A stretch of DNA of 64,000 bases from Deltaproteobacteria bacterium (GCA_037384945.1 JARRNM010000024.1:5297-69296), one strand, 5' to 3'. Shown: positions 9,314 through 42,127, counted from the first letter of the stretch. Numbers and translations: made by a program. Notes: generated from the letters alone by a model not told the origin.

Positions 9314-11734
9314 TTATTCAACCATCTCCCCCAAAACCAGTTCAACGGCAGAGCCGGCCTCGAGATCGTAGGTTTTTTCCTTGAAACCAACCTTGATGGG
9401 CATCTCTGTGCTCTTCAAGGTACGCACCTGCAAGCGATCTGAGGTCACTTCCACCTCCAGAGCGTGGCCTCGGTAGCGAATATGCACGTGGAGTTTTGCC
9501 ATTTCCTCCGGCAAACACGGGTTAAACCAGAGTACGTTGTCACGGGGCTCGATACCGGTATAACAGTGGGTAATCAGGTCAACAGTGCCCGCCATGGCTC
9601 CCAGGTGGATACCTTCCGGCGTCGTTCCCCCCTGAATATCCTCAATGTCGCTTTTCAAGGCCTCGCAAAAGAATTTCCAGGAACGAATCCGGTCCGAGCG
9701 AGCAAGGACCCATGAATGTACTACCCGACTGAGGGTGGAACCGTGTGAGGTTCTCCTTAGGTAATAATCTATATTCTTGGGTATAGTCTTGTACTCGAAA
9801 GAATACCCCAGCTGATTAAAGAGCTTTTGCAGTTTCTCCGATGAGAAGAGATAGAAGAGCATGAGCACATCTGCCTGCTTTGAGGCTTTGTAGCCGTTAG
9901 GGGTATCGTCTTCCGCCTCCAGGACGCGATCCAACCTTTGGATATCTTTATATTTCCGGCGATAGCCTTGCCAGTCAAACTCCTCGAGTTTGTCGTAGCC
10001 TTCAAATTGACTGATGATACCTTCACCATGGAACACCAAACGCATTTTCCTGCTTATTTCTCGCCATTTCTCAATTTCCTCCTGACGGAGGTCGATGCTT
10101 TCGAGGAGTTCCCTGGAACGCTCCTCCGGCAAGATTCCGGGTATCTCCAGGGCACGGTTGAACACCCACACTGCCATGAGGTTGGTGTAAGCATTGTTGT
10201 TCAGGCCCGGTTGTTCCCCTTGCGGGTAACCGTCATGGTATTCGTCCGGGCCCATAACCCTCAAGATTTCGTAACGATCCATCTCAGAGTTGTAGGTTGC
10301 TATGCTGGCCCAGAAACGGGCTATCTCCAAAATCATCTCCGCTCCATAGAAGGAGAGGAATTCCATGTCCCCGGTAACCTCGTAGTAATGCCAGACATTG
10401 TAGGCAATGGCTGAATTCACGTGGCGTTGCAGGTGAGAGTTGTCAGGGAGCCATCGTCCAGATTTAGGATTGAGATGAACTTCCTGGGTTTCTTCCCGGC
10501 CGTTGCTGCCGCTTTGCCAGGGAAACATGGCGCCAGAATATCCAGCCTTTTTGGCAGCAAGGCGAGCCCGGTCTAGGCGGCGAAAGCGGTACATAAGTAA
10601 TGATCGGGTGATTTCCGGAAGACGGAGGTTCAACATGGGGAAAACAAACAGCTCGTCCCAAAAGACGTGGCCGCGGTAAGCCTCACCGTGCCAGCCCCGG
10701 GAGGGCACTCCCACGTCAAGGTCCATGGTATGGGTGGACGTTGTCTGGAGCAAGTGAAAGATGTAGAGGCGGAGGATAATTTCGGTGCGGTCGCTTTCCT
10801 CCGGCCTCCTGTGAACAAAATCTACCTCGAAGCGACGCCAAAGATGCTCCCAGGACCGGGCGTGGCTCTCCAGCAGCCCCTCGAAGGAGCCGGCGCGGGC
10901 CACAGCGTTGTGTGCTTCTAGGCCGCCCTCGGAGATGGCTTTGTCCCGGGAGGTGAAAAAGGTAACTATTTTTTCGATGCGGACCTGGGCGCCCTTTTCT
11001 AGGTGAACGAGAAATTCCTGGAAGATGCGTCCGGGCTCCTTAAGACAGCTTTTTAATCGCTGATGAGGTTGACCGTGCAGAAACACTCTCGTCCGGGCGC
11101 CCTGGGCAATGGTTAATTTTGACTGCTTGGTCAGCACTTTTAGATAAATGGTTTCCTCGTCCACTTCTTCGGTTATCAGGGGTTCCAGGTGGTTGCTGTT
11201 CAGCTCCTTGTAGCGGTCCACGCCTTGATTTGTCACCAGGCCGTCCAGTCCGGAGCGGATTTCCAGTTCCCCCGACCAGTTTTCCGCTGTTAGCCGCATT
11301 TCCAGGGCAGCGAGATGCTTGTCGGCCATATGGACCAACCGCCGCTCCTCTACGTTGGTCTGTCTCCCCTGGTGGTCACGAAAACTGATGGTTCTGAGGA
11401 GGATACCACGGCGCAAGTCCAGTTCCTGGCGATAGGAGAGAATCTCCACCTCCTTAAGGGAAAACCAGTCGGATCCAGGTAGTCGAAAGGTAAGGGGTAA
11501 CCAGTTGGGCATATTTACCAGATCCTCGTTTTCAATGACCCGCCCGGCGATTTCCGTGTCCAGCCGGTTATAACCACCGGCAAGGTAGGTACCTGGATAG
11601 TGCACTCCATCCGCCACGGTTTCAGTTCCGGCTCCTCTGGTGGCGAAGTAACCATTGCCCAGGGTGCACAAGGCCTCTCGCAGCCCTTCCTCTCGAGGAT
11701 TGAATCCATGGTATACTAGCGACCACCGGCTCAT
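9314..11734 (-). CDS. glycoside hydrolase family 65 phosphorylase (trehalose/kojibiose/maltose-type)
   Basis: 806 aa. The N-terminus LGNGYFATRGA and the overall architecture are typical of GH65. Its start overlaps the stop of the upstream beta-PGM/T6PP gene by 4 nt (ATGA). Confidence 0.9.
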   Translation of the reverse strand: MSRWSLVYHGFNPREEGLREALCTLGNGYFATRGAGTETVADGVHYPGTYLAGGYNRLDTEIAGRVIENEDLVNMPNWLPLTFRLPGSDWFSLKEVEILSYRQELDLRRGILLRTISFRDHQGRQTNVEERRLVHMADKHLAALEMRLTAENWSGELEIRSGLDGLVTNQGVDRYKELNSNHLEPLITEEVDEETIYLKVLTKQSKLTIAQGARTRVFLHGQPHQRLKSCLKEPGRIFQEFLVHLEKGAQVRIEKIVTFFTSRDKAISEGGLEAHNAVARAGSFEGLLESHARSWEHLWRRFEVDFVHRRPEESDRTEIILRLYIFHLLQTTSTHTMDLDVGVPSRGWHGEAYRGHVFWDELFVFPMLNLRLPEITRSLLMYRFRRLDRARLAAKKAGYSGAMFPWQSGSNGREETQEVHLNPKSGRWLPDNSHLQRHVNSAIAYNVWHYYEVTGDMEFLSFYGAEMILEIARFWASIATYNSEMDRYEILRVMGPDEYHDGYPQGEQPGLNNNAYTNLMAVWVFNRALEIPGILPEERSRELLESIDLRQEEIEKWREISRKMRLVFHGEGIISQFEGYDKLEEFDWQGYRRKYKDIQRLDRVLEAEDDTPNGYKASKQADVLMLFYLFSSEKLQKLFNQLGYSFEYKTIPKNIDYYLRRTSHGSTLSRVVHSWVLARSDRIRSWKFFCEALKSDIEDIQGGTTPEGIHLGAMAGTVDLITHCYTGIEPRDNVLWFNPCLPEEMAKLHVHIRYRGHALEVEVTSDRLQVRTLKSTEMPIKVGFKEKTYDLEAGSAVELVLGEMVE

Positions 11735-13297
11735 TGCTCTTCTCCCTTCACCCTAGAGGCAAGTTTTTGCAGAAACTCACCAACCTCGTGCGGATCTGCC
11801 AGCTGGTATTGAGCTTCGGTTTTGGGGGAACCTTTCGCCACCAAAATGGTGATGCCCCGGTCCTTGAGCGCTCTGAAACCGTCTTCATCGGTGGTGTCAT
11901 CGCCGATGTAGAAGGGCAGAACATTGGCTTGATTGAGCTCCAGCTCGTCCAGCAGCCAGAGGAGGGCTTTTCCCTTGTGCCAATCGAGGTTGGGCTGCAG
12001 TTCAAAGACCTTCTTTCCCGAGGACTTATGCAAATCCGGACAGTTCTCCAGCACCCGGTCAACAGCGGCTTCCACCCGGCCGATGTTGTCTTCGGCCACC
12101 TTGCGGTAGTGGGCGGCAATGGAAAACTTCTTTCGTTCCACCAGAGCACCGGGAATGCTCTGCAGCTGGCTCTGCAGCCCTTGCTCGGCTCGATCCAGAA
12201 CTGGAAGAAATTCTGCGGCTTTCTGGGCTTCCTTACGCTCACCACCAGGACCGGCTATATCGAAACCATGGCTGCCGGCGTAGTAGATGGAGTCGATGTC
12301 CACCAGTTGTCGCACATCCTTTAAGTCCCTGCCACTTATGATCCCTACGGTGCAGTACTTGGCTAATTGTTTTACGGTATGGCGCATCTCTTTGGAGAGG
12401 ACCGCCAGTTCAGGGCTACTCACAATTGGGGTCAAGGTGCCGTCGTAATCAAGAAAAACTGCCATCCTTTTGTTTTTAGCCCTCCGTCTAATTTCAGCCA
12501 TTTGTTCCAGAGGAGAGGGCAAAGATGATGTCTCGCTGTTGGACTGAGCCGCCACTTTGATTTCCGCCAGGTCCTTCACTACCACGTGTGCGCCGCTTTC
12601 TTTCAAGGCTGCGGTTTGCTCCTCTCTGTCCACGCCGATAACGCAAGCAAACTCTCCCCTCTTACCAGCTTCGACGCCGGCGATGGCGTCCTCGACCACA
12701 ATAGCACGGTTGGGGTTTACTCCGAGTCTGCGAGCGGCTTCGAGGAACATATCGGGAGCGGGCTTTCCTGGGAGATTAAGCTCGGCGAGATCCACTCCGT
12801 CAACTTTGGCCTCGAACAGGTGAGTGAGCTTTGCCGCCTCCAATACGGCAGCACAATTCTTACTGGAGGAGGCCACGGCCGTCTTGAGATTGTTGCGGCG
12901 GAGGGCATGAATCAGATCAACGGTGGATTGGAAAACAGGAGCCCCGTTTAAGTAGATCATTGAACAGTTCATTCTTGCGGTTGCCCAGACCGCAGATGGT
13001 TTCCTTTCCTGGGTCGTCGTCGGGGTCACCGTAGGGAATGTTTATGGAGCGAGCTTGCAGAAAACTCTCAACCCCATCATAGCGAGGCTTGCCGTCCACG
13101 TAGCGGCGGTAGTCTTCAGTGCGGTCGAAGGGTTGGTAGGACCTGCCTTCTCGTTCACCCCGTTCCTTCAGATATTCGTCGAACATCTGTTTCCAGGCGT
13201 CGGCATGCACTTCAGCGGTTTTGGTAACCACGCCATCCAGATCGAAGATTACTGCGTCGTAAGTGGAAGGATTGATGGTGAAGCCCGGAGTCGTCAT
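11731..13297 (-). pseudogene. beta-phosphoglucomutase (HAD) fused to trehalose-6-phosphate phosphatase, interrupted by a +1 frameshift
   Basis: ORF 12917..13297 carries FDLDGVV and ends inside the HAD cap. ORF 11731..13029 continues the same domain in another frame (KTAVASSS, VEDAIAGVEAGK), followed by a TPP domain (FLDYDGTLTPI). Confidence 0.8.
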
Positions 13298-13312
13298 GCA
13301 AATGCTCCTCTC

Positions 13313-13499
13313 TTAGCCCGGATGTTTCATGAATGACTTGCTGCGACCGTGGATATGGCCGTCCTTCCGTGCGTCCTCGGGTGTCGCACCCTGCGACGTA
13401 CCGTTCAGGTACGGTTCGGGTCCGACACCCTGCGGTTGCCCGGTGGCACTCCCATCTTCACAGTCTCGCGACAGCAATTCATGAAACATCCGGTGCTAG
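13313..13499 (+). repeat. copy A of a ~180-nt structured element (candidate ncRNA or MITE)
   Basis: The termini pair over ~22 bp (CCGGATGTTTCATGAAT ... ATTCATGAAACATCCGG plus a TTAGC/GCTAG extension). There is an internal hairpin CGTACC-GTTCA-GGTACG and a conserved core CCCATCTTCACAGTCTCGCGAC. Confidence 0.7.
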
Positions 13500-13888
13500 G
13501 GGTTCAAGGCGGACATTAGTCCTCATTTACTCCTCAGTCATCACTGATAACCTGACTCTCATAATAAACTAAGAGTTTCATGAAACCACAGCAAGGTTTC
13601 TCTGCGAAATGGGGACAACACTGTATTTTCGTGGTTGTAAACGATTTATTTCGTCCTGTTGTTATGGCTAGAATTCCTGTTTTTCCCTTGGCCCGGAAAC
13701 AACCTGGAAAAATGAGGGTGGTAGCAAAAAGAAATACAGCCTAGGCTTTATGGACGAAGGAGGGTTTATCTGCTTTGCTAGGGCAAGCTTTTCAATTTAG
13801 GGAACTGTTGAGAGGAAAGTTGTCACGCCTGGCTAGAAATGAGAAATCGGAGATTTAGATAAAAGAGGTTGGGACACGAAAGGAAACC

Positions 13889-14275
13889 ATGGAGCCTCGT
13901 GAATTCGGTGATCCCCGAGTGAGATTCTGGCTGCTCAATGGCAGCGAAGAAGAAATTAAGGTAACCGAACCCAAACTGGACTATCCTCTCCCCCAAGGCT
14001 CTCGCTTGCTTATCGAGGTGGAGGAAACCCCGGTAGTGGACGTTCGCTTTCACTTCAACGCCAGAACCGAGCGACCCTACGAGCTGCATTTCCGTGTGAG
14101 AGAGGGTTTTGACTATCAAGAGCTTGAAGGGGAGGCTGAGCTGGTGGCTTACGGCTCACAAACAGACAAGGATTTACTTGAGGAACACTTTGCCAGAGTA
14201 CTAGACTATGGCAACACCAGGGTCACCATCGGCATGACTCGCGGCAGGGCCAGAGTCTATATCGAAACTGAATAG
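13889..14275 (+). CDS. hypothetical protein
   Basis: 128-aa ORF with ATG start and non-repetitive composition. No recognisable motif. Confidence 0.45.
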   Translation: MEPREFGDPRVRFWLLNGSEEEIKVTEPKLDYPLPQGSRLLIEVEETPVVDVRFHFNARTERPYELHFRVREGFDYQELEGEAELVAYGSQTDKDLLEEHFARVLDYGNTRVTIGMTRGRARVYIETE

Positions 14276-14365
14276 CTGGACGAGAGTGGCAAAAGCCAGT
14301 GAGCATGAGTGCTGGCACCTTTATCCGCGGCCGGATTGTGCTCGGATGAAGAAGCTGGGGACTGA

Positions 14366-14791
14366 TCAAGACGAGGTGGAATGACGGACACCAGGTTTGT
14401 CGACAATTTGCACGGTGCTCGCCTGTGGCCCTTTGTCGCCCATAGTTTCCACGTATCTCACCCCGGTGCCGATTTCCAATCGGTCGAAGTCATCAGCGAG
14501 CACACTGTTTCGGTGGAAATAAAGGACTCGGCCATCAACAGTTTTTAGAAAACCGTAATCCTTCTCAGGGAACAGCTTGTCAACCAAGGCCACCCTTTGA
14601 ACGCTCAAATAAATCCCCACCCGGTAGGGACTACCGCTACGCTGGTGTTCCTGCGAGCTTTCCACCGTCACCCTGATGCTGATTATATAAGTGCAGAGCC
14701 GCTCAAGCTTGCCTACCTTTCTGCGGATTAGCTCTTCTGTGGCGGCCGTCTTTTGCACATCCCGATAGGTAATTTCCAAGGGGATTTGCAT
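14366..14791 (-). CDS. HPF/RaiA-like N-terminal domain fused to a cold-shock-like domain (short variant)
   Basis: The N-terminus MQIPLEITYRDV...YRVGIYLSV is HPF/RaiA-like. The C-terminus LFPEKDYGFLKTVDGRVLYFHRNSVL...GDKGPQAS is CSD-like. Confidence 0.7.
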   Translation of the reverse strand: MQIPLEITYRDVQKTAATEELIRRKVGKLERLCTYIISIRVTVESSQEHQRSGSPYRVGIYLSVQRVALVDKLFPEKDYGFLKTVDGRVLYFHRNSVLADDFDRLEIGTGVRYVETMGDKGPQASTVQIVDKPGVRHSTSS

Positions 14792-15137
14792 GACTCAGAT
14801 CACCTCTCCATTCTCTCTGTCCTGCAGCTAAACTTCTGCATATCTTATAGAATTAGACTACTAGTGGGAAGATGAATAAGGAATGAGGTAATTCATGTAT
14901 TCCGCTAAAGGCAAGACTGTAGGTTCCCCGCCCATTTTCCGTCCCGGACGTGACAGGATTGGGGATAGGGAGGTTATGTGCTAATACTCCATCTCACCGC
15001 TGCCATATACAGGCAAGACCTGATTTGTTTCCCCCCTCGCTAGCTCCTATGATAAGTAATTGTTCGGCTGTGGTGGTGACTTCTTGGGCCAGGCATCGAG
15101 ATGTTGCCGCACATTTTCAGAGGGAGTTAGTGCAGTC

Positions 15138-15347
15138 ATGACTGATCAACCAATGAGAACTACCTCAGAACTGAGATGTCCTTTTCTGGACTGCAGGAGC
15201 GAAGAAATTGCCAGCGTGGGATATGAGAACTCCGCCACCTCATCAAACAAGTCGGGAGAGCGTTTCGATGAACGCATATTCCAATGCCAGAAATGTGAGA
15301 GGAAGTTTCTCTATCTTGGGGATTTATCATTGAGCAGTAACCGCTAA
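15138..15347 (+). CDS. small zinc-ribbon-like protein (hypothetical)
   Basis: CPFLDC and CQKC pairs. ATG at 15138 is preceded by AGGGAG. The longer ORF from 15060 is less likely. Confidence 0.4.
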   Translation: MTDQPMRTTSELRCPFLDCRSEEIASVGYENSATSSNKSGERFDERIFQCQKCERKFLYLGDLSLSSNR

Positions 15348-15364
15348 TAAGAAGGAGAATAACC

Positions 15365-15655
15365 ATGGATAAAAAGGAAGCATACAGGGAGAAACTTGAG
15401 GCACAAATGAGAGAATGGAGTGCCAAAATCGATCTATTGAAGGCCAGGGCTGATAAAGTGGAGGCCGAGAGCAAAATTGAATACAAAGACCGGATTGAGG
15501 ACATCCGACAGAGGAAGGCAGCCTTACAGACAAAACTCAAGGAGTTACGGAATGCCAGCGATGACGCCTGGAAGGATATCAGGGCAGGTACGGAAAAAGC
15601 GGCAGACGGTCTCAGGGAGGCCCTGCAGAGTGCCTTCTCCAAGTTTAAGCAGTAA
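15365..15655 (+). CDS. small coiled-coil protein (paralog family)
   Basis: 96 aa, with an AAGGAG Shine-Dalgarno 8 nt upstream. It shares EAxxREWSAKIDxLK-type sequence with ORF 49917. Confidence 0.6.
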   Translation: MDKKEAYREKLEAQMREWSAKIDLLKARADKVEAESKIEYKDRIEDIRQRKAALQTKLKELRNASDDAWKDIRAGTEKAADGLREALQSAFSKFKQ

Positions 15656-15660
15656 AAGGG

Positions 15661-17198
15661 TTGCCGGCTTTACAGCTCACAACTACTAAGGTTTCATTGT
15701 TCGCGGTAATGGATTTTAATGGTATGAACAGAGCTCATTTTTCCAGTTCTCAGTTGTTCTCTGTGCTCACGGGCGAGAAGAAACTCCTTTTGGTATTGGT
15801 GATCGTCCTTTCTCTGCAAGCAGCCATTTCTATGGTACAACCTTGGCCGCTCCAGGTAATTTTTGATAATGTCATTTTGCACGAGCCTCCCAGTCCTCTT
15901 TTAGCCGGACTCGCCAGTCCCTGGTGGGATGTCGTTTCTGGCAACCTTCTCCCTCTCATGGTGTTTTTGCTCATGGCGGTGGCCTTGCTCAACGGAGCCG
16001 CTTTATATCTGCAGAACGCTTATCTCACCCGGCTCATCCAGCGGGTGGTGCACCGGCTGCGCGTCCGTCTCTTTTCCCACATAATCGATCTTCCCGTGTC
16101 GTATTTCGATAAGGTAGGCGCAGGGGAAATCGTTTCCAGAGTTGTCTCTGATACGGCAAACGTTCAGTCTGCTCTGGAAGCTCTTCCACCAATGTGGCCC
16201 TCTCTGCCGGAGTTGCCATAATGGTTTTCATCGGCGTGTTTCGCATCCGGGCAGGACAGATCACCCCTGGAGAGCTCCTGGTATTTATGAGCTATCTGAG
16301 GAGCATGTTCAAACCGGTTAGGGAAGTAACCAAATATTTCAATAAGATCGCCAAAGCCTTGGCCTCTAACGAACGGATAGAGGAAGTAATGGAGGTTACA
16401 CCTTGCGATCTGGGTGTCTGCGAAGTCGCCGGAGCTTCTCCCATGCCGCCATTTCATAAGGAAATGGTTTTCGAGAAGGTTTCCTTTGAATATGAGCCTG
16501 GAGTAAAGGTCCTCGAAGGTCTCAGCTTTCGGATTAAGCAGGGCCAAAAGGTAGCGATCATCGGAGATTCAGGGTCAGGAAAATCCACTCTCCTGAGCCT
16601 GATTCCCAGGTTTTTCGATCCTACGGATGGTAGAATTCTCATGGACGGACAAGATATTCGCTTTCACTCCCTCAAGACGTTACGGGAGCAAATTGCAGTT
16701 GTTCCCCAAGAGCAGATCATCTTCCACACAACCGTGCGGGAAAACATCGCCTTGGGCAAACCGGGTACCGAGGTAAGAGAGGAGGAAATCAGAGAGGCGG
16801 CGGCGAAGGCCAATGCCCATGAATTCATTGTCAACCTGCCGGAGGGCTATGAAACCGAGTTGGGGATCGGCAACACCCATCTTTCCGGGGGACAGGCCAA
16901 ACGGATACTGGTTGCCAGGGCCCTTCTCAGAGACGGTCCGGTTGTCCTCCTCGACGAACCCACGGCCGGGCTCGATCCCTCCTCGGAAACAAAGGTCATG
17001 GAGGCTTTCGATCGCTTGATGGAACAAAGGACTATCATTGTGGTCACCCACCATCTCCCCCTGATTACCAATGCGGACCTGATTGTTGTCTTGAAAAACG
17101 GCACTGCGGCGGAGCAGGGTGATCATCAATCCCTGGTCGAAGAAGGGGAGATCTATTATCACTTCTGGCAAGAGCAGATGGCACAGCTATACGGTTAA
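15661..17198 (+). pseudogene. ABC exporter (fused TMD-NBD, MsbA-like) with internal deletion and frame change
   Basis: ORF1 holds TM1-TM2 and ICL1 (SYFDKVGAGEIVSRVVSDTANVQ). ORF2 starts at the TM6 region (GQITPGELLVFMSYL), followed by an intact NBD (GDSGSGKST, LSGGQ, LLDEPT). Confidence 0.75.
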
Positions 17199-17237
17199 AG
17201 ATATTTTTCGGAGCCACAGATGAATGACTGAATTGTC

Positions 17238-18980
17238 TCATGTTACCGTCTTGCGGCTCTGTAGTATGGCATCAATATTATTCTCCGCCCAGTTATCAAC
17301 CCTTCTTTCATTTTCCACGTAGCCGATGATTGCCTCGGAAAGACGCTTGCCGCCGTCTAGAGCCCTGACGATCTTGTCTGCTGCGGCCTTGGGCTTGACC
17401 GGATCAACAAAGATCACCCCGTCGTCTTCTCCAAATCCCCTCTCCTTCAGGACCCGTGAAGCACCGCTTGTGCTCAGCACCAGCATGCCTCTTTCTTCAG
17501 GTCTCTTGTATTTTTGCGAGAGGATGTATTCAAAGGCCACAAGGTTCATGCCGTCCTCCAGAGGGGTGACGAGCATGAGTTTAATCTCTTTCATGAAGCG
17601 GTAGTTCTGGGGGGGCGGAATTCCTTGGTTCAGGTGAACAAGGGGCTTTCCTTCGAGGCTATTGTTGAGCTTGCTGATCTCTTGGGAGAGAATGTCGTTC
17701 AAACGTTGGTAGTCGGGGTTGTCCATCCTGCTGGGAGCGGTGACCTGGTAGAAGCAGGCATCCTTGCCTTTGGCCCTGATTTTAGCGAGGGCGTGCTGGA
17801 AGATGGCGCCCCTTTCCAGCAGCCCTTTAGTGTAGTCGCACCGCTCCAGTCCGCCGAAGATATACTTACCATCCAATCGATTGCGGCGGATGGTCTGGTG
17901 GAGCTCCTCGCCGTTCACCTTATGCTCCAGGGTCTTTCCTTCAGAGACCTCGGAGAGGATCCTGTCCACATCAAGGCCGATGGGAAAGGCGCCGACTGTG
18001 GTCACCTGACCCTGGTAAATAATTTCATAAAAGTGATTTTTCACCCGTATCTCCACGGGAAACCATTCCTGCAGGGCCTCCAGGTAGTTGTCGCAGTACT
18101 CCTTGGTATGAAATCCGATGAAGTCATTGGCAAGCATGCCCCAGGTGAGCTTTTGCAGGGCCCCTTCAATGGTTTCGGCGAAGGGATCATAGACTTGCAT
18201 TTTGACACGGTTTCTCTTGTCCTCCCGGATGAGCCCCTGAATTTCATGGATGTTGAAAAAGGGCGTGTGCATGAACTGCCCTATGTGTATCCTCCGTCTT
18301 TCTTCATGGGAGAGCCCTTCTTCCATGAGCAACGCCCTGAGAGTCTCCGAAGTCTGCATCAGATGATAGTCCTGGTTCCAGACGACCACGTCCTCTTCTC
18401 TTTTCCAGAACTCCTTGCTCTTGTTGAGCTCATCGATGACGGTATTGGCAAAAGTGACCCCGCTGCTGGTGTACTGAATAAAGTCATTTTTTTCAAAATA
18501 TGGTCTGGCGAAACCGGTGGCCTTTTTGTAAAAAAGCGGGGCCCGGGTGAGGTGCATGAGTGGCCAGAGGAAGCCGTTGGCGAACTTGTTGTAGTAGCTG
18601 TGCATGTGCCTGGTGTCAAAGAAGACAAATCTCAGGTGAAAGTCATAGTCCCGGTATTTGAAGTGCATCCTGGTGTCCGGCTCTATTTCGATCTGAGGAA
18701 AATCAACAGGTGAATGGCCCTCTCGAGTCATTCGCTTGAACAAGGGGGCAAAGTGACCGCGGGCCACATCTATATCTCGATTCCCCATGGAGGCGCCGAG
18801 CCAGGTAGGGCTCCAGCTTCCAGGTTTCAGCAGGCTGGACATGGCCTGTACCAGACCGCCGGCGCCGAACTTCGGGGGATTTGGTTTTCTGTCCTCTTTC
18901 AAGCATGATTCTGCTTCATCGAGGAAGCCTTGTGAAAAACTAAAGGGTCCCCGGTTGGAGACGATGACAAGGTCGCTCAT
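17238..18980 (-). CDS. otsA: alpha,alpha-trehalose-phosphate synthase (GT20)
   Basis: MSDLVIVSNRGPFSF N-terminus and GT20-like sequence throughout. I start it at ATG 18980; the 63-aa extension to 19169 is encoded by repeat DNA. Confidence 0.9.
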   Translation of the reverse strand: MSDLVIVSNRGPFSFSQGFLDEAESCLKEDRKPNPPKFGAGGLVQAMSSLLKPGSWSPTWLGASMGNRDIDVARGHFAPLFKRMTREGHSPVDFPQIEIEPDTRMHFKYRDYDFHLRFVFFDTRHMHSYYNKFANGFLWPLMHLTRAPLFYKKATGFARPYFEKNDFIQYTSSGVTFANTVIDELNKSKEFWKREEDVVVWNQDYHLMQTSETLRALLMEEGLSHEERRRIHIGQFMHTPFFNIHEIQGLIREDKRNRVKMQVYDPFAETIEGALQKLTWGMLANDFIGFHTKEYCDNYLEALQEWFPVEIRVKNHFYEIIYQGQVTTVGAFPIGLDVDRILSEVSEGKTLEHKVNGEELHQTIRRNRLDGKYIFGGLERCDYTKGLLERGAIFQHALAKIRAKGKDACFYQVTAPSRMDNPDYQRLNDILSQEISKLNNSLEGKPLVHLNQGIPPPQNYRFMKEIKLMLVTPLEDGMNLVAFEYILSQKYKRPEERGMLVLSTSGASRVLKERGFGEDDGVIFVDPVKPKAAADKIVRALDGGKRLSEAIIGYVENERRVDNWAENNIDAILQSRKTVT

Positions 18981-19055
18981 ACCAAACTCCTGTGTTAGCT
19001 TTTGCGGTTCAATCTCCTGACACCCGAAACGTATCCCACATCCATCCAGGTGGAC

Positions 19056-19345
19056 ACCACAAAGATCACAAAGAACACAAAGTAGTACCAAAAACCTAGT
19101 TTGATATCTTTGTGCACTTCGTGTTTTGAGCGGAACGAAGGATCTCGAGATTCTTCGTCGCCCCGCCATTAGCGGGACTCCTCAGAATGACAACCGAAAA
19201 GCAAGTTTCCGGAGGACACTAATTAGAGAATTGGAAAATTAGGAAATTGGTAAAACCGTGAACGGTAAACGGTGAAACCTAATACAACTGGTTGTCTAAT
19301 TCCCTAATGTCCTAATTTCCTAATTCTCTAATTCTCAACCCGCTA
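19056..19345. repeat. intergenic word-chain repeat region
   Basis: CACAAAG words, a 60-nt dispersed repeat (19133-19193), AATTAGAGAATT / CCTAATTTCCTAATTCTCTAATT words in inverted arrangement, and GGTAAAC words. Confidence 0.85.
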
Positions 19346-27060: not shown

Positions 27061-27446
27061 CCCCCCGTCCTCAACAGAGCCCCCATTAACGATAAATTCA
27101 GACTTTTTTACCTAAAAAATCAGATTTTCTCCGATTGACGCAGATGACGGATGAATGATTAAATTCGAGAGAGCACCTTCAAGATTCTTTCTCTACGATT
27201 GGTAAAAGACAAAGACTATAGGAGGGCATCGGACTAACGCAGGACTGCCTTCTTGATGGATCTGTTTAATTTCCTTTGCTCCGGTGGCACATATCCCTCA
27301 CGGCCTTTACTCAACGAAAGGCAACAGTTTAAATCTGATTGCCAACTTCAGAGTGGGCTGCTTGATATGCTCGCGGGTGTTCATCTCTTTGCTTTTGGAG
27401 AGTCTCGCCAGAGTCCCAGTAATTTTGCGCTTAGAAGGACGGCTCC

Positions 27447-28479: not shown

Positions 28480-30918
28480 ATGCCGGCCAAAAAGGACAAA
28501 AAGAAGACAGAGACAGAAGTTCCAAATCAAACAAAGAAAGGCAAGAGCGAGGCAAAAAGGCAAAAGGATAAAAATCCCTCCGAACCCGCTGCCCCCATTC
28601 AGTACACTGAAAAAGTTTTTCCCATTGTGGGCATAGGTGCATCTGCCGGGGGGCTGAAAGCCCTGGAGAAGTTCTTTGACCACATGCCGCCGCAGGAAAA
28701 CATCTCTTTTGTGGTCGTGCAACACCTGGATCCGAAACATGAAAGCCTGATGCCCGGGCTGCTGGAAAAGCACACTGAGATGAAGATCTCGACTGCGAAC
28801 AGCGGGCAAAAGATCGAACCCAATCACCTCTACATAAGACCGCCGGGCAGGGACGTGGTTGTCAAAAACCGCACCCTTTATCTGCAGGAGCCCAGCGAGG
28901 GGAGAGGGATCCAGCTGACAATCGATATCTTCTTTCGCTCTCTGGCCGAAGACCTCGGTGAACTGGCCATCTGCATCATCCTGTCGGGCGCCGGCAGCGA
29001 CGGGACCCTGGGTCTCAAATCCATCAAGGGAGAAGGCGGCATGGCGATGGTACAGGAGGAAAAACAGGCGGAATACAATGGAATGCCCCTTAGCGCCATC
29101 AACACCGGCCTGGTAGATTACATACTTCCGGTGGAGAAAATGCCCGGGCAACTCATTACCTACATTCGGCATCTCTCCGAGGTACCTGAAAGGATCGGGT
29201 CCGATGAGGAGAAAACCGAGCAAAGTGTCAACCGAATCCTGACCTCCGTGCGGTTGGCTACCGGACACGATTTCAAGAATTATAAGAGAGGCACCATCCA
29301 CCGGCGGGTTGCGCGGCGCATGGCGGTGCAGCAGATCGGTGAAATCAGTCATTACGCCCAGTACCTGCGGCAAAACCCGGCTGAAATACACGAGCTCTTC
29401 AAAGACCTCCTTATTAATGTGACCAACTTTTTCCGGGATCCTGCAGCCTTCGAGGTTCTGGAGAGAGAAGCACTACCCGAGCTGCTCGAACAAAAGGAAA
29501 AAAAGGAAGAGGAACCCGGCACCCCCCTGCGTATCTGGGTCCCGGGATGCGGCACGGGTGAAGAGGCTTACTCCCTGGCCATGCTCCTGGTCGAGGCCAT
29601 GGAAAGGCAGGTCGACCGGCAGATACGGGAGATGGTTGTCTTTGCCGTGCACGATCTTACCAGGGACCCGCCTTTCTCCCGCCTCGACCTGGTAAGCTGC
29701 AGAAACGTGCTGATCTACATGAATACACCTTTGCAAAAGAAAATAATTCCCCTCTTTCACTATGCTCTCCGGGAAGGTGGTATTCTCTTTCTGGGCTCCT
29801 CAGAAGGAGTTGGAGAGTACACTCAATTATTCGAATTAATAGACCAAAAGCACAGAATTTATCGCAACAAAAAGACGGAGGACCAACACGCTCTCCTTGA
29901 ACAGCTGATCGGTCGAGCCGGCCCGGAGCTCGGCGAGCCGGCAAGAGGTGCAAGAGGGCAGCCAGCCCGAGACGCCAGACAGTCGGAGCTTAATATCCGC
30001 AGGCTGGTAGAGCAGTCCATCATAAGAAAATACGCACCTCCTAGCGTGCTTGTAGACGGTAAATTTCAGATTCTCTACTTTCACGGCGACACCAGCAAAT
30101 ACCTCAAACCACCCCGGGGGGAGCCCAGCTTTGATCTATTGCGAATGGCCACCGAAGGCCTGCATTACACACTGGACAAAGCACTGCTTGAGGTAAAGAG
30201 AGGCAAGAAGCCCCTGACCCTGGAGAATTTGAAAATTCGCGACAACCTTGCATTTTTGACCGTGGACATAGTCTTGACGCCTCTGTTCGAGACCAGGGGC
30301 GGATCCGATCTGATCCTGATTAGCTTCGAAGACAAAACACCTCCGCACGAGATAAGAAGCGAAGAAGACCGAGCAGCAAAAGCAGAGGACTTCGACTCAC
30401 GCTTAACTACAATGCAGAACGAACTTGACGCCACCAGGCAGAAGCTGCAAGCTACCATTGAAGGGCTGCAATCCACCAACGAAGAGCTGGAAACGGTGAA
30501 CGAAGAGTTCCAGCGGAAGAACCTCGAGCTGATAAGGGCCGAAGACGACATGCGCAATCTCTTTCATGCCACTGGAATTGCCACCATTTACCTGAACGAT
30601 GAGCTGCAGATCGTGCGGTTTACTCAGGCTGCAACCACAATATTCAACCTGCGTGAGCAGGATGTGGGCCGCCCTGTTTCCGATATCACCGGCCAGTTCG
30701 ACGCCGGTATCTTGTCCGAAGCGGCAAAGAACGTACTGAAATCCCTGGAAAAGAAAGAATGGGATGTGCCCGGCCAGGACGATCGCTGCTTCTCCGTCCG
30801 CATGCTCCCTTACCGGACAACAGACAACGTCATCGCCGGCGTGGTGATAACCATCATGGAGGTGACCGAAGCCAGAAAGGTGGAGCAGCGGGCGGAAAAG
30901 GCCAAAGCATCCTTCTGA
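28480..30918 (+). CDS. CheB-type methylesterase / CheR-type methyltransferase / coiled-coil / PAS fusion protein
   Basis: CheB-like FPIVGIGASAGGLKAL ... SGAGSDGT. CheR N-domain plus FFRDPAAF and VPGCGTGEEAYSLAMLL. A C-terminal PAS. The SAM-binding domain looks internally shortened. Confidence 0.85.
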   Translation: MPAKKDKKKTETEVPNQTKKGKSEAKRQKDKNPSEPAAPIQYTEKVFPIVGIGASAGGLKALEKFFDHMPPQENISFVVVQHLDPKHESLMPGLLEKHTEMKISTANSGQKIEPNHLYIRPPGRDVVVKNRTLYLQEPSEGRGIQLTIDIFFRSLAEDLGELAICIILSGAGSDGTLGLKSIKGEGGMAMVQEEKQAEYNGMPLSAINTGLVDYILPVEKMPGQLITYIRHLSEVPERIGSDEEKTEQSVNRILTSVRLATGHDFKNYKRGTIHRRVARRMAVQQIGEISHYAQYLRQNPAEIHELFKDLLINVTNFFRDPAAFEVLEREALPELLEQKEKKEEEPGTPLRIWVPGCGTGEEAYSLAMLLVEAMERQVDRQIREMVVFAVHDLTRDPPFSRLDLVSCRNVLIYMNTPLQKKIIPLFHYALREGGILFLGSSEGVGEYTQLFELIDQKHRIYRNKKTEDQHALLEQLIGRAGPELGEPARGARGQPARDARQSELNIRRLVEQSIIRKYAPPSVLVDGKFQILYFHGDTSKYLKPPRGEPSFDLLRMATEGLHYTLDKALLEVKRGKKPLTLENLKIRDNLAFLTVDIVLTPLFETRGGSDLILISFEDKTPPHEIRSEEDRAAKAEDFDSRLTTMQNELDATRQKLQATIEGLQSTNEELETVNEEFQRKNLELIRAEDDMRNLFHATGIATIYLNDELQIVRFTQAATTIFNLREQDVGRPVSDITGQFDAGILSEAAKNVLKSLEKKEWDVPGQDDRCFSVRMLPYRTTDNVIAGVVITIMEVTEARKVEQRAEKAKASF

Positions 30919-31479: not shown

Positions 31480-33594
31480 ATGTCTAAATTAGACAAAGAA
31501 AAATTTGTCGATCTTCGGGAAAGGGCGGAGCGGGTCCTGACCGAATCTCCTGGAGGGCTCCAAAAGATACCCACAGATGTGCAGGAGCTTATCCATGAGC
31601 TGCAAGTTAGAAGTGTCGAGCTGGAAATACAGAATGAACAGCTCAGGGAAACCCAGCTTGAGCTCCAGCAGTCGCATGACCGGTATGTCGAACTCTATGA
31701 CTTCGCCCCGGTTGGATATCTCACCATGGACAGCAATGGATTTATTGTCCAGGCCAACCTGGCTGTTTGCGCTTTGTTAAAAACACAAAGAAACGTATTG
31801 TTGACTCAGCCATTCAACGATTATGTGAAAGCTTCTCAGCGGAATGAATTTGAAAACCATCTCAGTCTGGTGAGCGCAACCTTGAGCAAACAAACCTGCG
31901 AACTCGAGCTAGTGGCCAGTAATCGCTCGGAGGTCGACGTTGAGATGCTAACGGTTCCCATTGACAGCCCGGATGATGACCATGCACTGTGGTACCGGGC
32001 AATCTTAACCGATATCGGTGAACGGAAGAGAAGGGATGAAGCCTTGCAACAGGCTTATGAAGAACTGGATCTGCGCGTGGAAGAGCGTACCAGAGAACTG
32101 GTGACGATGAATGAGCAGCTGAAAGGGGTCATAAGAAAGCGGGAGCAACTGGCACAGAACCTCCAGTTAGAAGTGGAAGAACGCAAGAAAATAGAGGGAG
32201 TCCTGCGAGAAAGCGAAGAACTTTTCCGGCGCACCTTTGATGAAGCGCCAATCGGTGCGGCGATTATTTCAACGGACTTTCGATTTAAAAGGGTCAACTC
32301 TGCATTGTGCTCCATCACGGGTTATTCTCAAGAAGAACTCGAGTCTCTCAGCTTTATGGATATCACTCATCCTGAGGATAGAGCGGATAGCGGATAACCT
32401 GAAAATGGCCCAAAAACTTGCCTCCGGTGAACTCCGCGATTATCAAGTGGAGAAGCGATACATACAAAAAGAAGGCAAAATTGTCTGGGTGCGTGCCTCC
32501 ATCGAAGTGATGCGAGATGAAGCAGGAGAGCCGATTTATTACCTGCCAATGACGGAGGACATCACAGAAAAGAAAAAGGTAGAGATTAAATTACGTGAAA
32601 GCGAGGAGAAGTACCGCCTGCTGATCCAGAATTTGCCGGGGGTTGTCTACAAGGGACAGAGAGATTGGTCGGTGGAATTCTTTGATGAAAAGGCTGAAAG
32701 GTTTACAGGGTACAAAGTGGAGGAATTTTGTTCCGGCCGGAAAAAATGGTCCGACCTGATCCTGGAAGAGGACTTCGACAGAGCCAAGGAACCACTCGTC
32801 AGGGCTCTTAGGACGGACAGATCCTTCCGGAAAAAATGGTCCGACCTGATCCCGGAAGAGGACTTCGACAGAGCCAAGGAACCATTCGTCAGGGCTCTTA
32901 GGACGGACAGATCCTTTGTCAGGGAATACCGAATAAGATGCAAGGATGGACAAATTTGTTGGGTGCAGGACCGGGGAACCATAGTGTGCGATGAAAAGGG
33001 AGAGATCCTTTCTGTGAACGGCGTTCCAAACTAAGGGTTGATTCAATGAGATATGGGGAAGTATCCAGCAAGATCTCTCCTGAGCTTGAGGCACTAAGTA
33101 GGAATCTCGAGGATGCCATAGAACAGACCCAATCTTTGATATTCAGGCTCAGCCCGCCGGTTCTTTACCAGGTTGGCTTGAGTGAGGCGCTGGAGTACCT
33201 GACCGAGTTGATGGAAACAAGTTATGGTATCCCCATCGCAGTAAGTTCTGAGTTAAACTCTCTGCTGCTGCCTGAAGATGAATCCGTCCTGCTCTTTCGA
33301 GCGGTGCAGGAACTGCTGATAAACATCGTCAAGCACGCTGGAGCCAGCAGATCCAGCGTAACTCTGAAAAGAAGTGATAATCAGGTGCAGGTTGAGGTTC
33401 AGGACGACGGGGTGGGTTTCGATACACGCCTATTATCAGCGCAAGGATCAGTGAAAAAGGGGTTTGGTCTGCTCAATATCCGGGAACGTTTGCACAATCT
33501 CGGTGGACATATGGAGGTTCAATCCTCACCTGGTGGCGGCACCAAGGTTAGCATCACAGCACCGTTGCCAACCGAGACTGGCAATACTCAATAA
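31480..33594 (+). pseudogene. multi-PAS NarL-type (HisKA_3) sensor histidine kinase with multiple lesions
   Basis: Three ORF pieces (31480-32397, 32237-33034, 33046-33594). There is a 7-bp tandem duplication frameshift, a 90-bp tandem duplication, and the H-box is missing ahead of an intact HATPase_c (GVGFD, GFGLLNIRERL). Confidence 0.8.
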
Positions 33595-34261: not shown

Positions 34262-34770
34262 TCAGGTCAAGGCGACACGGTGACAGGGAGACACGGAGAC
34301 GCGGCGATTAGAGATCAGCTGGCAGATTCCAGCGTGCAGCTTGCAGGGCAGGCCACTGTGCCTGCCGCTACATGTCAGTTGTCCGTGGTCAGTGGTCCGT
34401 TGCCACAAAGCGATTATGAATCGTGTTTTTAGATTGAAACCACGCCGGGATGGCGGGGACAGTGCCCCGCCCTACGGCACAAATCCCAAATCCCAAGCAC
34501 CAAATCCCAAACAAATTCTAAATCACAATTCTCCAATGTTCAAAACAGTGTCGTAGAAACCGCAGAAGTCGTAGAAATCGTATAAGTCGTCAATTCAGCT
34601 CACAGGAAGCTTGTCATCTGATCTCTGACTTCCGACCTCCGACCTCTGATCCTCGTCTCGCCCGTCTCGCCCGACCTCCCGTCTCGCCTTACTCCATGCC
34701 CTATGCCCAGTCCCCCATCTCATTTAAAAATCAGCATTTCTGAACCGACAAATCAGACTCCCTCCTATTG
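34262..34770. repeat. intergenic word-chain repeat region
   Basis: GACACGG words, two GC hairpins, AAATCCCAAATCCCAAGCACCAAATCCCAAAC, GTCGTAGAAA words, CCGACCTC words, CGTCTCGCC words and TTACTCCATGCCCTATGCCC. Confidence 0.9.
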
Positions 34771-37328: not shown

Positions 37329-37399
37329 AAAGGGAAATAACTATAAACTATAGTAAGCCGTTCCAGTATTTACCCTGTTACTTGCATCATCAGAGGACA

Positions 37400-37600: not shown

Positions 37601-37639
37601 CTGAGACGATCTACCCAGAATGAACCCTTAGGGGAAGAA

Positions 37640-38392: not shown

Positions 38393-39631
38393 TCAATCAA
38401 GGCGCATCTGTGTTTTGTCATCCTCCTGGATTACCTTTGCGACTGCCTTTGTCTTTTCAGAGATCAACTCCCATTCAGCTTTTAACCGCCGCAGCAAATT
38501 GTTCCACCGGACGAGTTCGTCCTTTTTCGGGTCCGGCTTGTAGCCAAGAATCGATTGATAAAGGCGGACTAATCGGTCCGCAGAGGTTTGGCGGGAGAAA
38601 CGATCTGCTGTCTTCAAAGCCTCCTTTTGCCACTCTTTTGCCCGGGTCGCATCTTGGGTGAAACAGTGAAGAGCTTGGGCAAAGGATTGCGGGGAGGCGG
38701 TTTCTGCAAGCAAGCGTCCATTTTTCCCGTCTTGCACAACCTCCCGCGCTCCTGAGGCATCGAGAGCGATTACCGGTGTGCCGGCAGCCATGGCTTCCGT
38801 CAGGACCATCCCCTGGGTTTCAGACTTGGAGCTGAAGACGAAGAGGTCCATGGCCCTGTACACATCAGCCAGGTCTTGGCCGGTGACTATTCCCAACATA
38901 AGTAACTGCTCACTCAGGGATCTATCGGCGAAGATCCTTTGAATTTCCTTCTTGCTGGGGCCGCTGCCAGCCACGACGAAGAAAGCTTTGCGATTGCTCT
39001 CCAGGAATAGAGCTACCGATTCTGCCAGATATCTGAGGTTTTTTTCCGGTGCCAACCGCCCCAGATGGCCGATGACCAGGGCATCCTGGGGGATCCCGTG
39101 GGTTTGACGGATTTTCTCTCCCCGGCCTTTATTGAAAAACTGGATGTCTACCCCCGTGGGAATCTCTTCAATGACAGTTTCAACCCCTCGTTTACGAAGC
39201 AAACTGGCAACACTGAGGCTAGGTGCCACCACTCTGGTGCAATGATTGGCATACTCGGTGGAGAGTTGAATTACGAAGCGTCGCAGGGTTTCGGAATCCA
39301 AAGGAACGTAATGGGTATATTTTTCGTACAGGGTGTGATGGGTGAAGACCAGTGGCATGTCATGTGTCCGGGACGACCGGATGGCTGCATCTCAAATCAA
39401 ATAGGGATGGTGGCTGTGAATTACGTCCGGTGCGAACTGGTCTATTTTGTCATGGATTACAAATGGATGAGGAATGCGGAGTCCTATGGAGTCGATTTCC
39501 TCATGAAAAGTGGGAGCAATAACCAGAACCCTGTGACCTAGGCGGCACAGATCTTCCGCAAAGGTCGCAACCGAGCGCGCCACCCCACCCACGTGGGGAA
39601 GATAAGTATTGGTGAACATGCAGATATTCAT
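38393..39631 (-). pseudogene. GT4-family glycosyltransferase interrupted by an in-frame TGA
   Basis: ORFs 39392..39631 and 38393..39358 are in the same frame. The read-through gives HSHHPYLI*DAAIRSSRTHDMPLVFTHHT, continuous with GT4 N-domain consensus. Confidence 0.8.
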
Positions 39632-39694: not shown

Positions 39695-39862
39695 TAAAAT
39701 CCCAAATCCCAAGCACCAATTCCTAGGGTTTCAGGTTTAAGCGTTCAGGTTTCAGGGTTTAAATTTAGTCTTTGTGTTGTTTCTTTCTGACACCTGAAAC
39801 CTGACACCTGACACCTCAATTTGAAATCCGAATTCTCAAATCTCAAATTTCACATCTCACCT
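39695..39862. repeat. intergenic word-chain repeat region
   Basis: AAATCCCAAATCCCAAGCACC module, GGTTTCAGG words with inverted CCTGAAACC/CCTGACAC words, and AAATCCGAATTCTCAAATCTCAAATTTCAC. Confidence 0.85.
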
Positions 39863-39864
39863 CG

Positions 39865-42127
39865 CTACAACGGTTGCAGCGGATAGGATCCGCTAGTACC
39901 CGTAATCGTTTGCGCTTGGTACCCCGGCACCTTGATCTCCACCTCCGGTGATTCATCATACCAGGAGACCTCCAGCTGCAGCTCCGGTATATCTCCCTCC
40001 AGGCGCAGAGTTACACTCACCCGACCGTAGGGTGTGAGGGTCGGTCCAAACCGGAGTTGTTCTGCCGATTCCAACCATTCGGGAAAAACTCCAGATGCCA
40101 ATATGAGCCTGTCTGCCTCCTCGCGGACGAAGAGGTTGCGCATCATCATCACCCACTCCGCAGCGGCCCAGCCGTGCTGCCCGTCACCCATACAGCCTCC
40201 TCCGGTGATGGGGTGGATCGCCTCCGGCCACTGGCCGGTTGACGATGCCAGTGCCGCGACGCTCTCTATCAGTCTTTTGTAGCGAGAGTCGTTGCATCTG
40301 AGCAGCGATTGGGCGATGGACAAAGTCAGATATGGATTGATCCCCGAATGGATCATGTCCTGGAAGAAGCCACCGGAGTGGAAACACTGCTCCATGAGAA
40401 AATCGATGGTGTTTATAATTCTCGCCTCATCAGGCTTGGTAAGCTGCAGGGGGTAATCTGCTACCAGCGAACCGACGGCAGCAGCGTCCAAGCGGCGGTT
40501 TGGTGATGCGGGGATGCCTCCACGGCTTCTTGGTTGTGGAATCGCCTGAATGCTGGCAAACAGAGTATTTTCGAAATCGGAGGCAAGAGCTTCTATTTCT
40601 TCTTTCTTTGCTGATGAATGGAATATGCCGGCAAGGCGAGCAGCGCCTCTGAGACCGGCAATAGCCCAGAAATCATCCCAGTAGTAGTAATCGTTGGGGC
40701 CAAAGTGTTCAGCGCTGAAACCAGCAGGGAGAAGACCAGGGTGCTGCGCACTTTTTTCCCTGGGAACCCTTTTCTTCCTGATCCAATTTACCCCCTTGAG
40801 AAGGGCTTTCATCCAGCCGTCATCGAGGTTGCGCCTGCTCAGTCGCTGAAATCTGTCAAAGATCCACAGCACCTGTCCGTTTGAATCCCACTCGCCTTTC
40901 TGGGACTGAAAATAGCCGGAACGCTTTTGTCTGGAGAGAAAGCCGGTCAGCAAGCGGTGGCATCTCTCGGTTAATCCTAGTGCCAGGAGCCCATTGATCA
41001 TAAGGCAACCGTCCCGAAACCAGAAACGTTTATAGGTGTAAGGACCGGGAACCGGGTCAGCGGCCGAGAGGAGTACCAGGGTGCTCACCGCTGCCTCAAA
41101 GAGGAATTGCATCTTGGCATCCGGTATATTCAAGGTCGCGGTTTCGGCCAGACAGCCCGCCCAGGTCTGTCGCGGTCCGCGAATAGTTTCGCTTTTTGGT
41201 TGAATCTCCGGGCTCAGGGGTATGCTGATTTCGATCTTTTTATCATGGTTGTCGGTCAAGGGAAAAAGAGCGGCAGCGGTGGCCATGCCCACGGCACAAT
41301 CGACTTGCAGGTCTGATTCAGACTGGTACAGCTTGTGGATAACGTCGCCTTCGTCATAGTTGGAGAATAACATGCGCTCGGGACGCTCGCTCATCTTTAA
41401 CAACCTTTCTTTATTTACCAGCAATCCGGGGTGTTGTTCCACAAAGGCAATCTCCTCGATAAATTGAATCCCTTCCGGATTGTAAGGGCGGATTGAAACG
41501 GCGAGCCATCCCTCATCCTGCGACCTGCCCGTGATCTTTAGGGTCAGGTGCGGGGTGAGCCCTGAAAATTCGACTGCTGCAGCAGACTCCAGTTTCTGGT
41601 TATGCAGGTGACAGAGGGTTCTAACCAGAAGATTTGGTGATAATTCCAGCTGCTGCTCCACCTCCGGTAGTCGAGAGGGAAACAACCTTTTCCCATTGTT
41701 GGAGATAATCCAGAAGTCAAGGGACCAGCCGTCATAGAAAGGCGTAACTAACCCACGGGGATCGACAATTGGGTAGACAGGCAAGTCAGGCTGGCCAACG
41801 GCAGTCCAATTTCGGTGCGTCAGGTTAACGCAGGTTAACGTGACTAAAAGAAAAAGCCCTGGGAATAAAGGAGGGGTCGAAGGGATTGAACTGTTTTTCC
41901 ACCCAGTAAGGCCATAACCAATCGAGGTTGTTCTGTATTGCCTTGGTATTGATCAGCCCTCGGGCGTGAAAGATAATTCCGGCCCGCAATAATTCCATGG
42001 GCTCCTGCACCTCCGAAGGCTGGGCAAATCTACGCAATCGGGCCAGGAGAGAAACCGGGTCAATGACGCCGTAGGAACGGGCGGCCCGTTTGAGCAGAAA
42101 TTTCCATGGTATCCAGCGGGTGATCAT
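39865..42127 (-). pseudogene. GH15-like (alpha/alpha)6-barrel glycoside hydrolase split by a 10-bp tandem duplication
   Basis: ORFs 41825..42127 and 39865..41784. Removing one CAGGTTAACG copy restores ...FSHVNLTHRNWTAVGQPDLPVYPIVDPRG. The catalytic-domain-like sequence YKRFWFRDG is present. Confidence 0.8.

Follow-up and report, generated by a model that had tools for sequence, protein, structure and literature searches.

Private gene-breaking lesions in a 64-kb segment of a Deltaproteobacteria metagenome-assembled genome are very probably local assembly errors

In Mycobacterium leprae, Sodalis glossinidius, and host-restricted Salmonella and Shigella, pseudogenes are shared within a lineage, are mostly 1-bp frameshifts, nonsense transitions, and insertions of insertion sequences (IS), and are accompanied by substantial divergence. 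In filamentous cyanobacteria, short tandemly repeated repetitive (STRR) heptamers form tandem arrays. Broken genes can also come from the assembly itself. Local assembly and scaffolding errors in short-read metagenome-assembled genomes (MAGs), which can be detected by ra2.py, are reported to affect IDBA-UD scaffolds in particular (Chen et al. 2020, Genome Res 30:315, PMC7111523). Through such errors, incomplete genes find their way into databases; an incorrect number of repeats is a common fault, and overlaps may be duplicated where pieces are joined (PMC7111523). The subject of this study is a stretch of 64,000 nucleotides from a Deltaproteobacteria bacterium (GCA_037384945.1, JARRNM010000024.1:5297-69296), called the window throughout, in which genes for trehalose metabolism, ABC export, signaling, and glycosyl transfer are interrupted. 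The lesions are real in the deposited record, but very probably do not exist in the organism and are local assembly or scaffolding errors. This reading is favored because the lesions are private to one record, because their spectrum is non-biological, and because lesions of the same class are found in a sister MAG.

The window resembles early-reductive genomes in that accessory sugar and signaling genes are interrupted while core genes are intact. Unlike those genomes, however, it carries its lesions in one record of a population that is 98-100% identical, and there is no insertion or deletion (indel) of 1-4 bp and no IS element involved at any lesion. With the errors described in PMC7111523 it shares stretches of consensus unsupported by other data, open reading frames (ORFs) that entered public databases truncated or split, wrong repeat counts, and short duplicated overlaps.

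Exact-sequence look-ups placed the whole window on one NCBI contig, which is 70,381 bp long. Near-identical assemblies were retrieved by looking up the intact proteins of the window. The resulting comparison set has about 30 contigs, which represent no fewer than 10 samples and stem from JGI (metagenomes 3300056877 to 3300057030), from ENA, and from the Logan assemblies of SRA runs; a second NCBI MAG, GCA_037385085.1 (loci L090, L134, and L152), was also retrieved. The set is 98-100% identical to the window and jointly covers 63.3 of its 64 kb, with 1 to 17 contigs covering each lesion site. The sites of damage are as follows, with the size of the intact product elsewhere in brackets.

1189-1274 (86 bp), minus strand: garbled patch in which 26 positions are substituted, every change being C>A, G>T, or T>A; three stop codons result
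Between 1302 and 1303, minus strand: 13 bp lost from a gene of the inositol monophosphatase (IMPase) family (274 aa)
Between 12946 and 12947, minus strand: 5 bp lost (T8 to T3) from a beta-PGM(HAD)/T6PP fusion gene (523 aa), causing a frameshift; six other contigs concur on the reference state
Between 14598 and 14599, minus strand: blunt in-frame 159-bp deletion in HPF(S30AE)-CSD with 0 bp of microhomology, shortening the product to 141 aa (194 aa)
Between 16180 and 16181, plus strand: blunt 334-bp deletion in an ABC exporter gene with 0 bp of microhomology (611 aa)
Between 28340 and 28341, intergenic, no strand: blunt 61-bp deletion upstream of the CheB-CheR-PAS gene with 1 bp of microhomology, judged against two JGI contigs
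Between 29611 and 29612, plus strand: blunt in-frame 153-bp deletion in the S-adenosylmethionine-binding domain of CheR in the CheB-CheR-PAS gene with 0 bp of microhomology, judged against two JGI contigs
32382-32395, plus strand: 7-bp tandem duplication (AGCGGAT twice) in a PAS histidine kinase gene, causing a frameshift (755 aa)
Between 33025 and 33026, plus strand: blunt 160-bp deletion in the same PAS kinase gene, just before or within the HisKA_3 region, with 1 bp of microhomology
Between 37390 and 37391, intergenic, no strand: 50-bp deletion
39394, minus strand: nonsense substitution in a GT4 glycosyltransferase gene (432 aa)
39482, minus strand: 61 bp replaced by 1 bp in the same GT4 glycosyltransferase gene
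41821-41840, minus strand: 10-bp tandem duplication (CAGGTTAACG twice) in the gene for a hypothetical protein (750 aa), causing a frameshift; absent from L089 and L090
Between 63156 and 63157, minus strand: blunt 229-bp deletion at the 3' end of a gene (155 aa), removing the stop codon and AT-rich intergenic DNA, judged against four JGI contigs

The patch and the 13-bp deletion jointly destroy the N-terminus of the IMPase-family gene, the remnant of which (ORF 506-1141) matches Pfam Inositol_P. Across 1189-1303, four JGI contigs and the NCBI MAG contig L152 agree with one another against the window, and the intact gene is present in L149, L150, and L153. The frameshift in the fusion gene leaves ORFs 12917-13297 and 11731-13029; the intact fusion, with matches to Pfam Hydrolase and Trehalose_PPase, is found in JGI and ENA contigs. 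The HPF-CSD site at 14598 is spanned by 17 other contigs, none of which has the junction. In this protein (14366-14791), HPF/RaiA (Ribosomal_S30AE) and a cold-shock domain are fused in one 194-aa chain. The deletion in the ABC exporter leaves ORFs 15661-16221 and 16194-17198, and all nine contigs that span it are intact. The 153-bp deletion breaks the Pfam CheR match into two stretches and leaves an 812-aa singleton product. Intact PAS kinase alleles are present in three JGI contigs. Six window-private transversions (G>T, C>A, and A>T) lie in 39358-39482, within 125 bp of the junction at 39482, and one of them is the nonsense change; the cluster of this glycosyltransferase has 17 members, and the fifteen that were listed are without exception full-length, with 432 aa. 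The 229-bp deletion creates a 219-aa read-through ORF (62963-63622) that occurs on the NCBI contig only, five other members of the cluster having 155 aa.

An earlier, sequence-only reading of the window had called five genes within 11731-42127 clearly broken: the beta-PGM/T6PP fusion, the ABC exporter, the PAS kinase, the GT4 glycosyltransferase, and a GH15-like hydrolase. All five are broken in the deposited sequence at the places it gave, although the last is broken by the 10-bp duplication in a gene for which the GH15 label has no Pfam support, the intact 750-aa protein matching no Pfam family. Three lesions had been assigned to the PAS kinase. The 7-bp duplication and the 160-bp deletion are borne out. 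A 90-bp in-frame tandem repeat in this gene (32737-32916, plus strand), which the reading had counted among the tandem-duplication lesions, is not a lesion, because JGI contig L089 has both copies and yet encodes an intact kinase of 755 aa; this contig aligns through both copies with cross-copy matches, and the full-length members of the cluster all have 755 aa. The set of three tandem-duplication lesions is thereby reduced to those of 7 and 10 bp; most lesions are blunt deletions. The suspected shortening of the CheR module, HPF-CSD, and IMPase was correct (153 bp, 159 bp, and 13 bp plus the patch, respectively), the IMPase gene lying outside the range given. The damage at 28340, 37390, and 63156 and a synteny break at 53933-54013 had not been listed. 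A comparison with sister genomes had been proposed, and in the near-identical assemblies the same genes are intact wherever they are covered.

Wherever another near-identical contig covers one of the 11 lesions or the garbled patch, it lacks the damage. Twelve 30-mers across lesion junctions were searched for, and none was found in any near-identical contig; the deleted segments do not occur elsewhere in the window. The lesion-bearing products are confined to the 70,381-bp NCBI contig, where the 141-aa HPF-CSD, a 126-aa beta-PGM fragment, a 305-aa PAS fragment, the 812-aa CheB/CheR protein, and the 219-aa read-through product are singletons. No lesion is shared with any of the roughly 30 other contigs, with the partial exception of the left breakpoint at intergenic position 37390, which recurs in locus L090 of the second NCBI MAG. 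A search of the JGI metagenome collection for the 30-mer across the ABC exporter deletion likewise gave no match, but this collection seemingly lacks the near-identical Ga0568xxx samples (best protein match 96%), and the absence carries little weight. Deliberate planting of the lesions was considered and ruled out, since the lesion-bearing products were already on record from the NCBI contig.

Private lesions number 11 in 62 kb of the window, whereas the JGI, ENA, and Logan contigs, which add up to roughly 220 kb once redundancy is removed, have 1; the density in the window greatly exceeds what chance would give (conditional binomial p = 5e-7). The sequence-only reading had remarked on an unusual density of damaged genes; with 11 private lesions, the 86-bp patch, and the synteny break, it understated the case. 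The sole comparable lesion in the 220 kb affects the HPF-CSD locus of contig L145 (L145:749-1289; sample 3300056917), which has independently lost 75 bp, start codon included, at a junction with 2 bp of microhomology. Apart from this, the other contigs differ in a handful of 1-bp indels and, within tandem arrays, by whole repeat units.

The junctions, the indel sizes, and the substitutions of the window are each unusual, and together they are hard to square with natural mutation: the deletions are blunt, small indels are missing, the substitutions are odd, and they cluster on one side. Microhomology at the eight deletions of at least 50 bp (range 50-334 bp) is 0, 0, 1, 0, 1, 0, 0, and 1 bp, while about 0.67 bp is expected by chance, and random joins would look alike. 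There are no window-private indels of 1-4 bp in 63 kb, although this is normally the commonest class of indel. Among 59 typed window-private substitutions, the four classes G>T, C>A, A>T, and T>A account for 37 and transitions for only 16, whereas transitions account for 138 of the 240 private substitutions of eight other contigs (Fisher p = 6e-10). In a first count, made along the plus strand, 40 of 60 private substitutions preceded a junction by no more than 150 bp, and none followed one within that distance; this left-sided clustering tracks the orientation of the contig and not that of the genes. Mutagenesis of adenines of the diversity-generating retroelement type was considered for the patch at 1189-1274 and was ruled out: C>A, G>T, and T>A comprise both strands' equivalents, and the stops fall in a housekeeping-type gene.

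The set of transversions in the window is the one expected from A-rule bypass of abasic sites, and it also partly fits channel bleed in two-color sequencing chemistry. A biological history can be proposed, in which one salt-marsh Desulfobacterota strain underwent a real and recent burst of double-strand breaks and base loss, with homology-independent end-joining (Ku/LigD-like or topoisomerase-mediated) and A-rule bypass of apurinic sites, which would place an A opposite each missing base and so yield groups of G>T and A>T changes beside the breaks; such a genome would stand at the outset of a fast pseudogenization. Scars of Ku/LigD end-joining can be blunt, and the window resembles them in that microhomology does not exceed 1 bp and the losses run from tens to hundreds of base pairs; the substitution classes fit and are concentrated beside the junctions, the 75-bp deletion in one JGI contig looks real, at least one allele in the window (27142-27219, described below) looks naturally diverged, and if the assembly were purely de Bruijn, reads would have to cross the junctions. 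Much speaks against such a history. About 11 disruptive lesions stand against a few dozen substitutions in 62 kb, so that about one-fifth of the genes would have been broken within roughly 0.05% divergence, without a single 1-4-bp indel, a rate too high for the divergence. Patches with 30% substitutions (26 changes in 86 bp) are far denser than known break-associated mutagenesis, and the left-only asymmetry by contig orientation has no biological rationale. The lesion alleles are found in no other sample, and the second MAG has a blunt, chimeric insertion of a gene fragment. A burst of this kind is therefore very improbable.

The intergenic DNA of the window is dense with short tandem arrays of varied 7-9-bp words (79 arrays in Tandem Repeats Finder), for example at 4963-5324, 34274-34688, 39697-39859, 42146-42313, and 63684-63814. 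These arrays resemble STRR repeats in their density, their 7-9-bp units, and the occasional change of whole units between strains, but differ from them in their host, a Desulfobacterota-like sediment bacterium, and in their stability. Sixty-eight arrays could be tested, and for 65 of them one or more of the other assemblies has exactly the same array and flanks. Of the remaining three, two are the 7-bp and 10-bp lesion duplications, and the third is the 9-bp array at 4963-5038, which also varies by whole units among JGI contigs. The arrays are real and occasionally polymorphic, and excess instability in this sequence is not seen.

The sequence-only reading had favored a mutator lineage, in which elevated replication slippage or relaxed mismatch repair would both expand the 7-9-bp intergenic words and damage accessory genes. 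In its favor, two lesions are perfect tandem duplications of 7 and 10 bp, one is a change in the length of a T8 run, intergenic arrays abound, and one of them differs by whole 9-bp units between contigs. However, arrays would be the first targets of slippage, and the pre-existing arrays are unchanged, which argues against it: copy number is the same in 65 of the 68, and the one that varies is polymorphic in JGI contigs too. Blunt deletions make up eight of the 11 lesions, and direct repeats do not flank them. Shifts of 1 bp in homopolymers or microsatellites are missing, the only homopolymer change being the loss of five from a run of eight, and the 90-bp repeat keeps the frame and is an ancestral feature. 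Loss of mismatch repair typically shows itself in an excess of transitions, which here are instead too few (16/59 versus 138/240). Given also that the lesions are absent elsewhere, elevated slippage or relaxed repair with ongoing gene decay is extremely unlikely; the arrays are stable and mechanistically unconnected to the gene lesions. The repair genes mutS, mutL, and uvrD are not located within the 64-kb window.

The alternative that the sequence-only reading had offered was a consensus built from error-prone (long) or mixed-population reads, with random errors throughout. It was probably right that an artifact is involved, but wrong about the details, since the pattern suits bad joins of pieces that are accurate in themselves. 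Contigs of this population assembled from short reads reach at most 30 kb, so that a contig of 70 kb exceeds any of them and could suggest long reads, and polishing a long-read draft with short reads could clear small errors and leave larger ones. Between the lesions, however, the window is 99.9-100% identical to the other, short-read assemblies, with zero private 1-4-bp indels in 63 kb. Clean losses of 150-334 bp from unique coding sequence are atypical for long reads, and the sister MAG has the same class of lesion in contigs of only 3-14 kb. A noisy consensus is very improbable on these grounds.

The second NCBI MAG, GCA_037385085.1, has three private blunt lesions in 19 kb, at sites other than those of the window and at a rate like that of the window. 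The 750-aa gene has a 96-bp deletion. In L134 (JARRNL010000652.1), 89 bp are replaced by 1 bp in a 176-aa gene of the pilus cluster (opposite 59240-59328 of the window), and 293 bp of the secretin gene (opposite 58186-58478) are swapped for 277 bp of unrelated sequence. The 277-bp insert can be read through without interruption and encodes a PilZ-like LNFSSGG motif, which marks it as part of a different gene; the secretin locus of L134 is an unambiguous chimera. At 37390, L090 has exactly the left breakpoint of the window but has lost 55 bp as opposed to 50. A shared left breakpoint with differing loss is expected on the assembly-error reading, because a common contig end would have been joined to a right-hand piece that was trimmed differently.

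The same two records are connected by A>T variants at 1863 and 1883, which are present in the window and L152 only and in no JGI contig; these link both NCBI records to the same subpopulation or read set. The two variants cut an M50 peptidase from 375 to 372 aa. The prefix JARRNL adjoins JARRKO and JARRQO, which are prefixes of MAGs named Spart_*. Spart_048 is listed in the supplement of PMC11059160, in which MAGs were built with IDBA-UD 1.1.3 from individual libraries and from co-assemblies. The window and GCA_037385085.1 may have come from a common pipeline. A homology-based scan for split genes at 80 loci, two loci of other Spart MAGs included, was dominated by conserved antisense shadow ORFs and was too noisy.

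The order of genes in the window is also contradicted at one point, which coincides with a repeated element.

53925-54075, no strand: repeat element, about 150 nt long, that folds into a hairpin and has TTTAGAGGCTGTCCGACAAC as its terminal inverted repeats; its DNA fold has -46.6 kcal/mol, z = -10.4

To the left of this element, the window and JGI contig L127 do not differ at all (100% identity), and L127 runs on into cytochrome and AFOR genes. To the right it is L129-L133 that the window matches, and these lead in the opposite direction to MshE and a GAF kinase. The change from the TreT locus to the TPR/pilus locus falls inside 81 bp (53933-54013) that are common to both contexts, and the gene adjacency of the window is contradicted by seven JGI contigs. 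The synteny break is either a repeat-mediated misjoin or a true recombination between two copies of the element. The element has at least two copies in the genome (also L127:4110-4295, and L129 at 4130-4280 in plus orientation), one of them with a 31-bp insert, and it looks like a miniature inverted-repeat transposable element (MITE) or a repetitive extragenic palindromic (REP) sequence.

IDBA may append contigs without an overlap check if the distance estimated between them is negative. Assembly errors of this type could have produced the window if accurate short contigs of about 0.6-12 kb were concatenated without gap characters. Where neighboring pieces did not abut, 50-334 bp would be dropped and a blunt junction would result, while short overlaps with a mis-estimated length would lose 5-13 bp or duplicate 7-10 bp. 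Low-coverage, error-laden contig ends that were retained may have left the transversion-rich patches just to the left of the joins. Joins of this sort would concentrate errors at the ends of pieces and limit their size to that of the library insert, and the window agrees with both, as no deletion exceeds 334 bp and substitutions gather beside the junctions. One join would have been made through the 81-bp identical stretch of the hairpin element, giving the synteny break.

Several points weigh against this explanation. A pure de Bruijn contig can hold a blunt junction only where reads span it. That read support is missing at the junctions is something we infer, as is the connection to IDBA-UD, which runs through the likeness and shared variants between the window and the second MAG, itself placed by adjacent prefixes. 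The window has no N, whereas scaffolders normally put Ns at gaps, and the absence of N therefore calls for an extra step, such as negative gap estimates, splitting at Ns, or removal of Ns. The HPF-CSD deletion of L145 looks real and indicates that genuine deletion variants do occur in this population, if rarely. At 27142-27219, the 78-bp allele appears to have truly diverged, and the source strain is thus not simply identical to the JGI strains; when the closest reference strain was compared at the junctions as a test for a mosaic contig, the window was near-identical to JGI contigs throughout, which left little resolving power. Finally, about 1 lesion per 5 kb is far above the 13 errors per 1.13 Mb in the example of PMC7111523, a study that does not describe transversion-only patches.

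Some differences between the window and the other assemblies are not lesions, or may not be. The segment at 27142-27219 has 78 diverged bp where the references have 241 bp (L084:14710-14950). In a gapped alignment it is homologous to the first 80 bp or so of the reference segment, with mixed types of substitution; the reference segment holds a 47-aa, Cys-rich, Zn-ribbon-like ORF that the window does not have. As judged from the alignment, the 78-bp segment is probably a natural allele and not an error. A second difference concerns a coding repeat.

30443-30489, plus strand: 21-bp (7-aa) coding repeat in the coiled-coil linker of CheB-CheR-PAS, with 2.2 copies; L084 has five more (105 bp)

This difference is possibly a collapse in the assembly and possibly natural variation in copy number. 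Genuine strain polymorphism probably includes the 78-bp allele and the 9-bp array at 4963-5038, and possibly the number of 21-bp repeats.

The G+C content of the window is about 51%. With the GH65 protein as query, the nearest GTDB representatives are Desulfobacterota-type MAGs with at most 65% protein identity, and no sister genome was found among the GTDB representative genomes. The window encodes a 2-oxoacid dehydrogenase complex, Mla lipid transport, PssA, the CheB-CheR-PAS protein, the PAS histidine kinase with its own response regulator, the GT4 glycosyltransferase, and a type IV pilus/secretin cluster. It also encodes a GH65 phosphorylase, the beta-PGM/T6PP fusion, OtsA (GT20), and TreT, which amount to four routes of trehalose metabolism inside 45 kb (9314-19169 and 52520-53752) and suggest a large outlay on compatible-solute turnover in a marsh-sediment bacterium. 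Exact look-up of ORFs 50389-51567 and 57332-58969 in contig collections gave no match. For the former, other contigs call a 377-aa product, and the choice of start codon probably differs.

If a data-quality case is made from this window, it is that of one public MAG contig with about one gene-breaking error per 5 kb, the truncated products of which already form singleton clusters in public collections of proteins. Counting pseudogenes in such a MAG, or reading genome decay from it, would lead to wrong results. A cheap check of general use is to retrieve near-identical independent contigs and then to consider junction microhomology, indel sizes, the substitution spectrum, and the stability of arrays. 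Were the improbable end-joining burst true, the window would be a snapshot of catastrophic pseudogenization without slippage in a free-living bacterium, with about one gene in five inactivated within roughly 0.05% divergence. On the reading of local assembly errors, the biological import of the lesions is most likely nil: the trehalose, ABC-export, signaling, and GT4 genes are intact in all other assemblies of the population that cover them.

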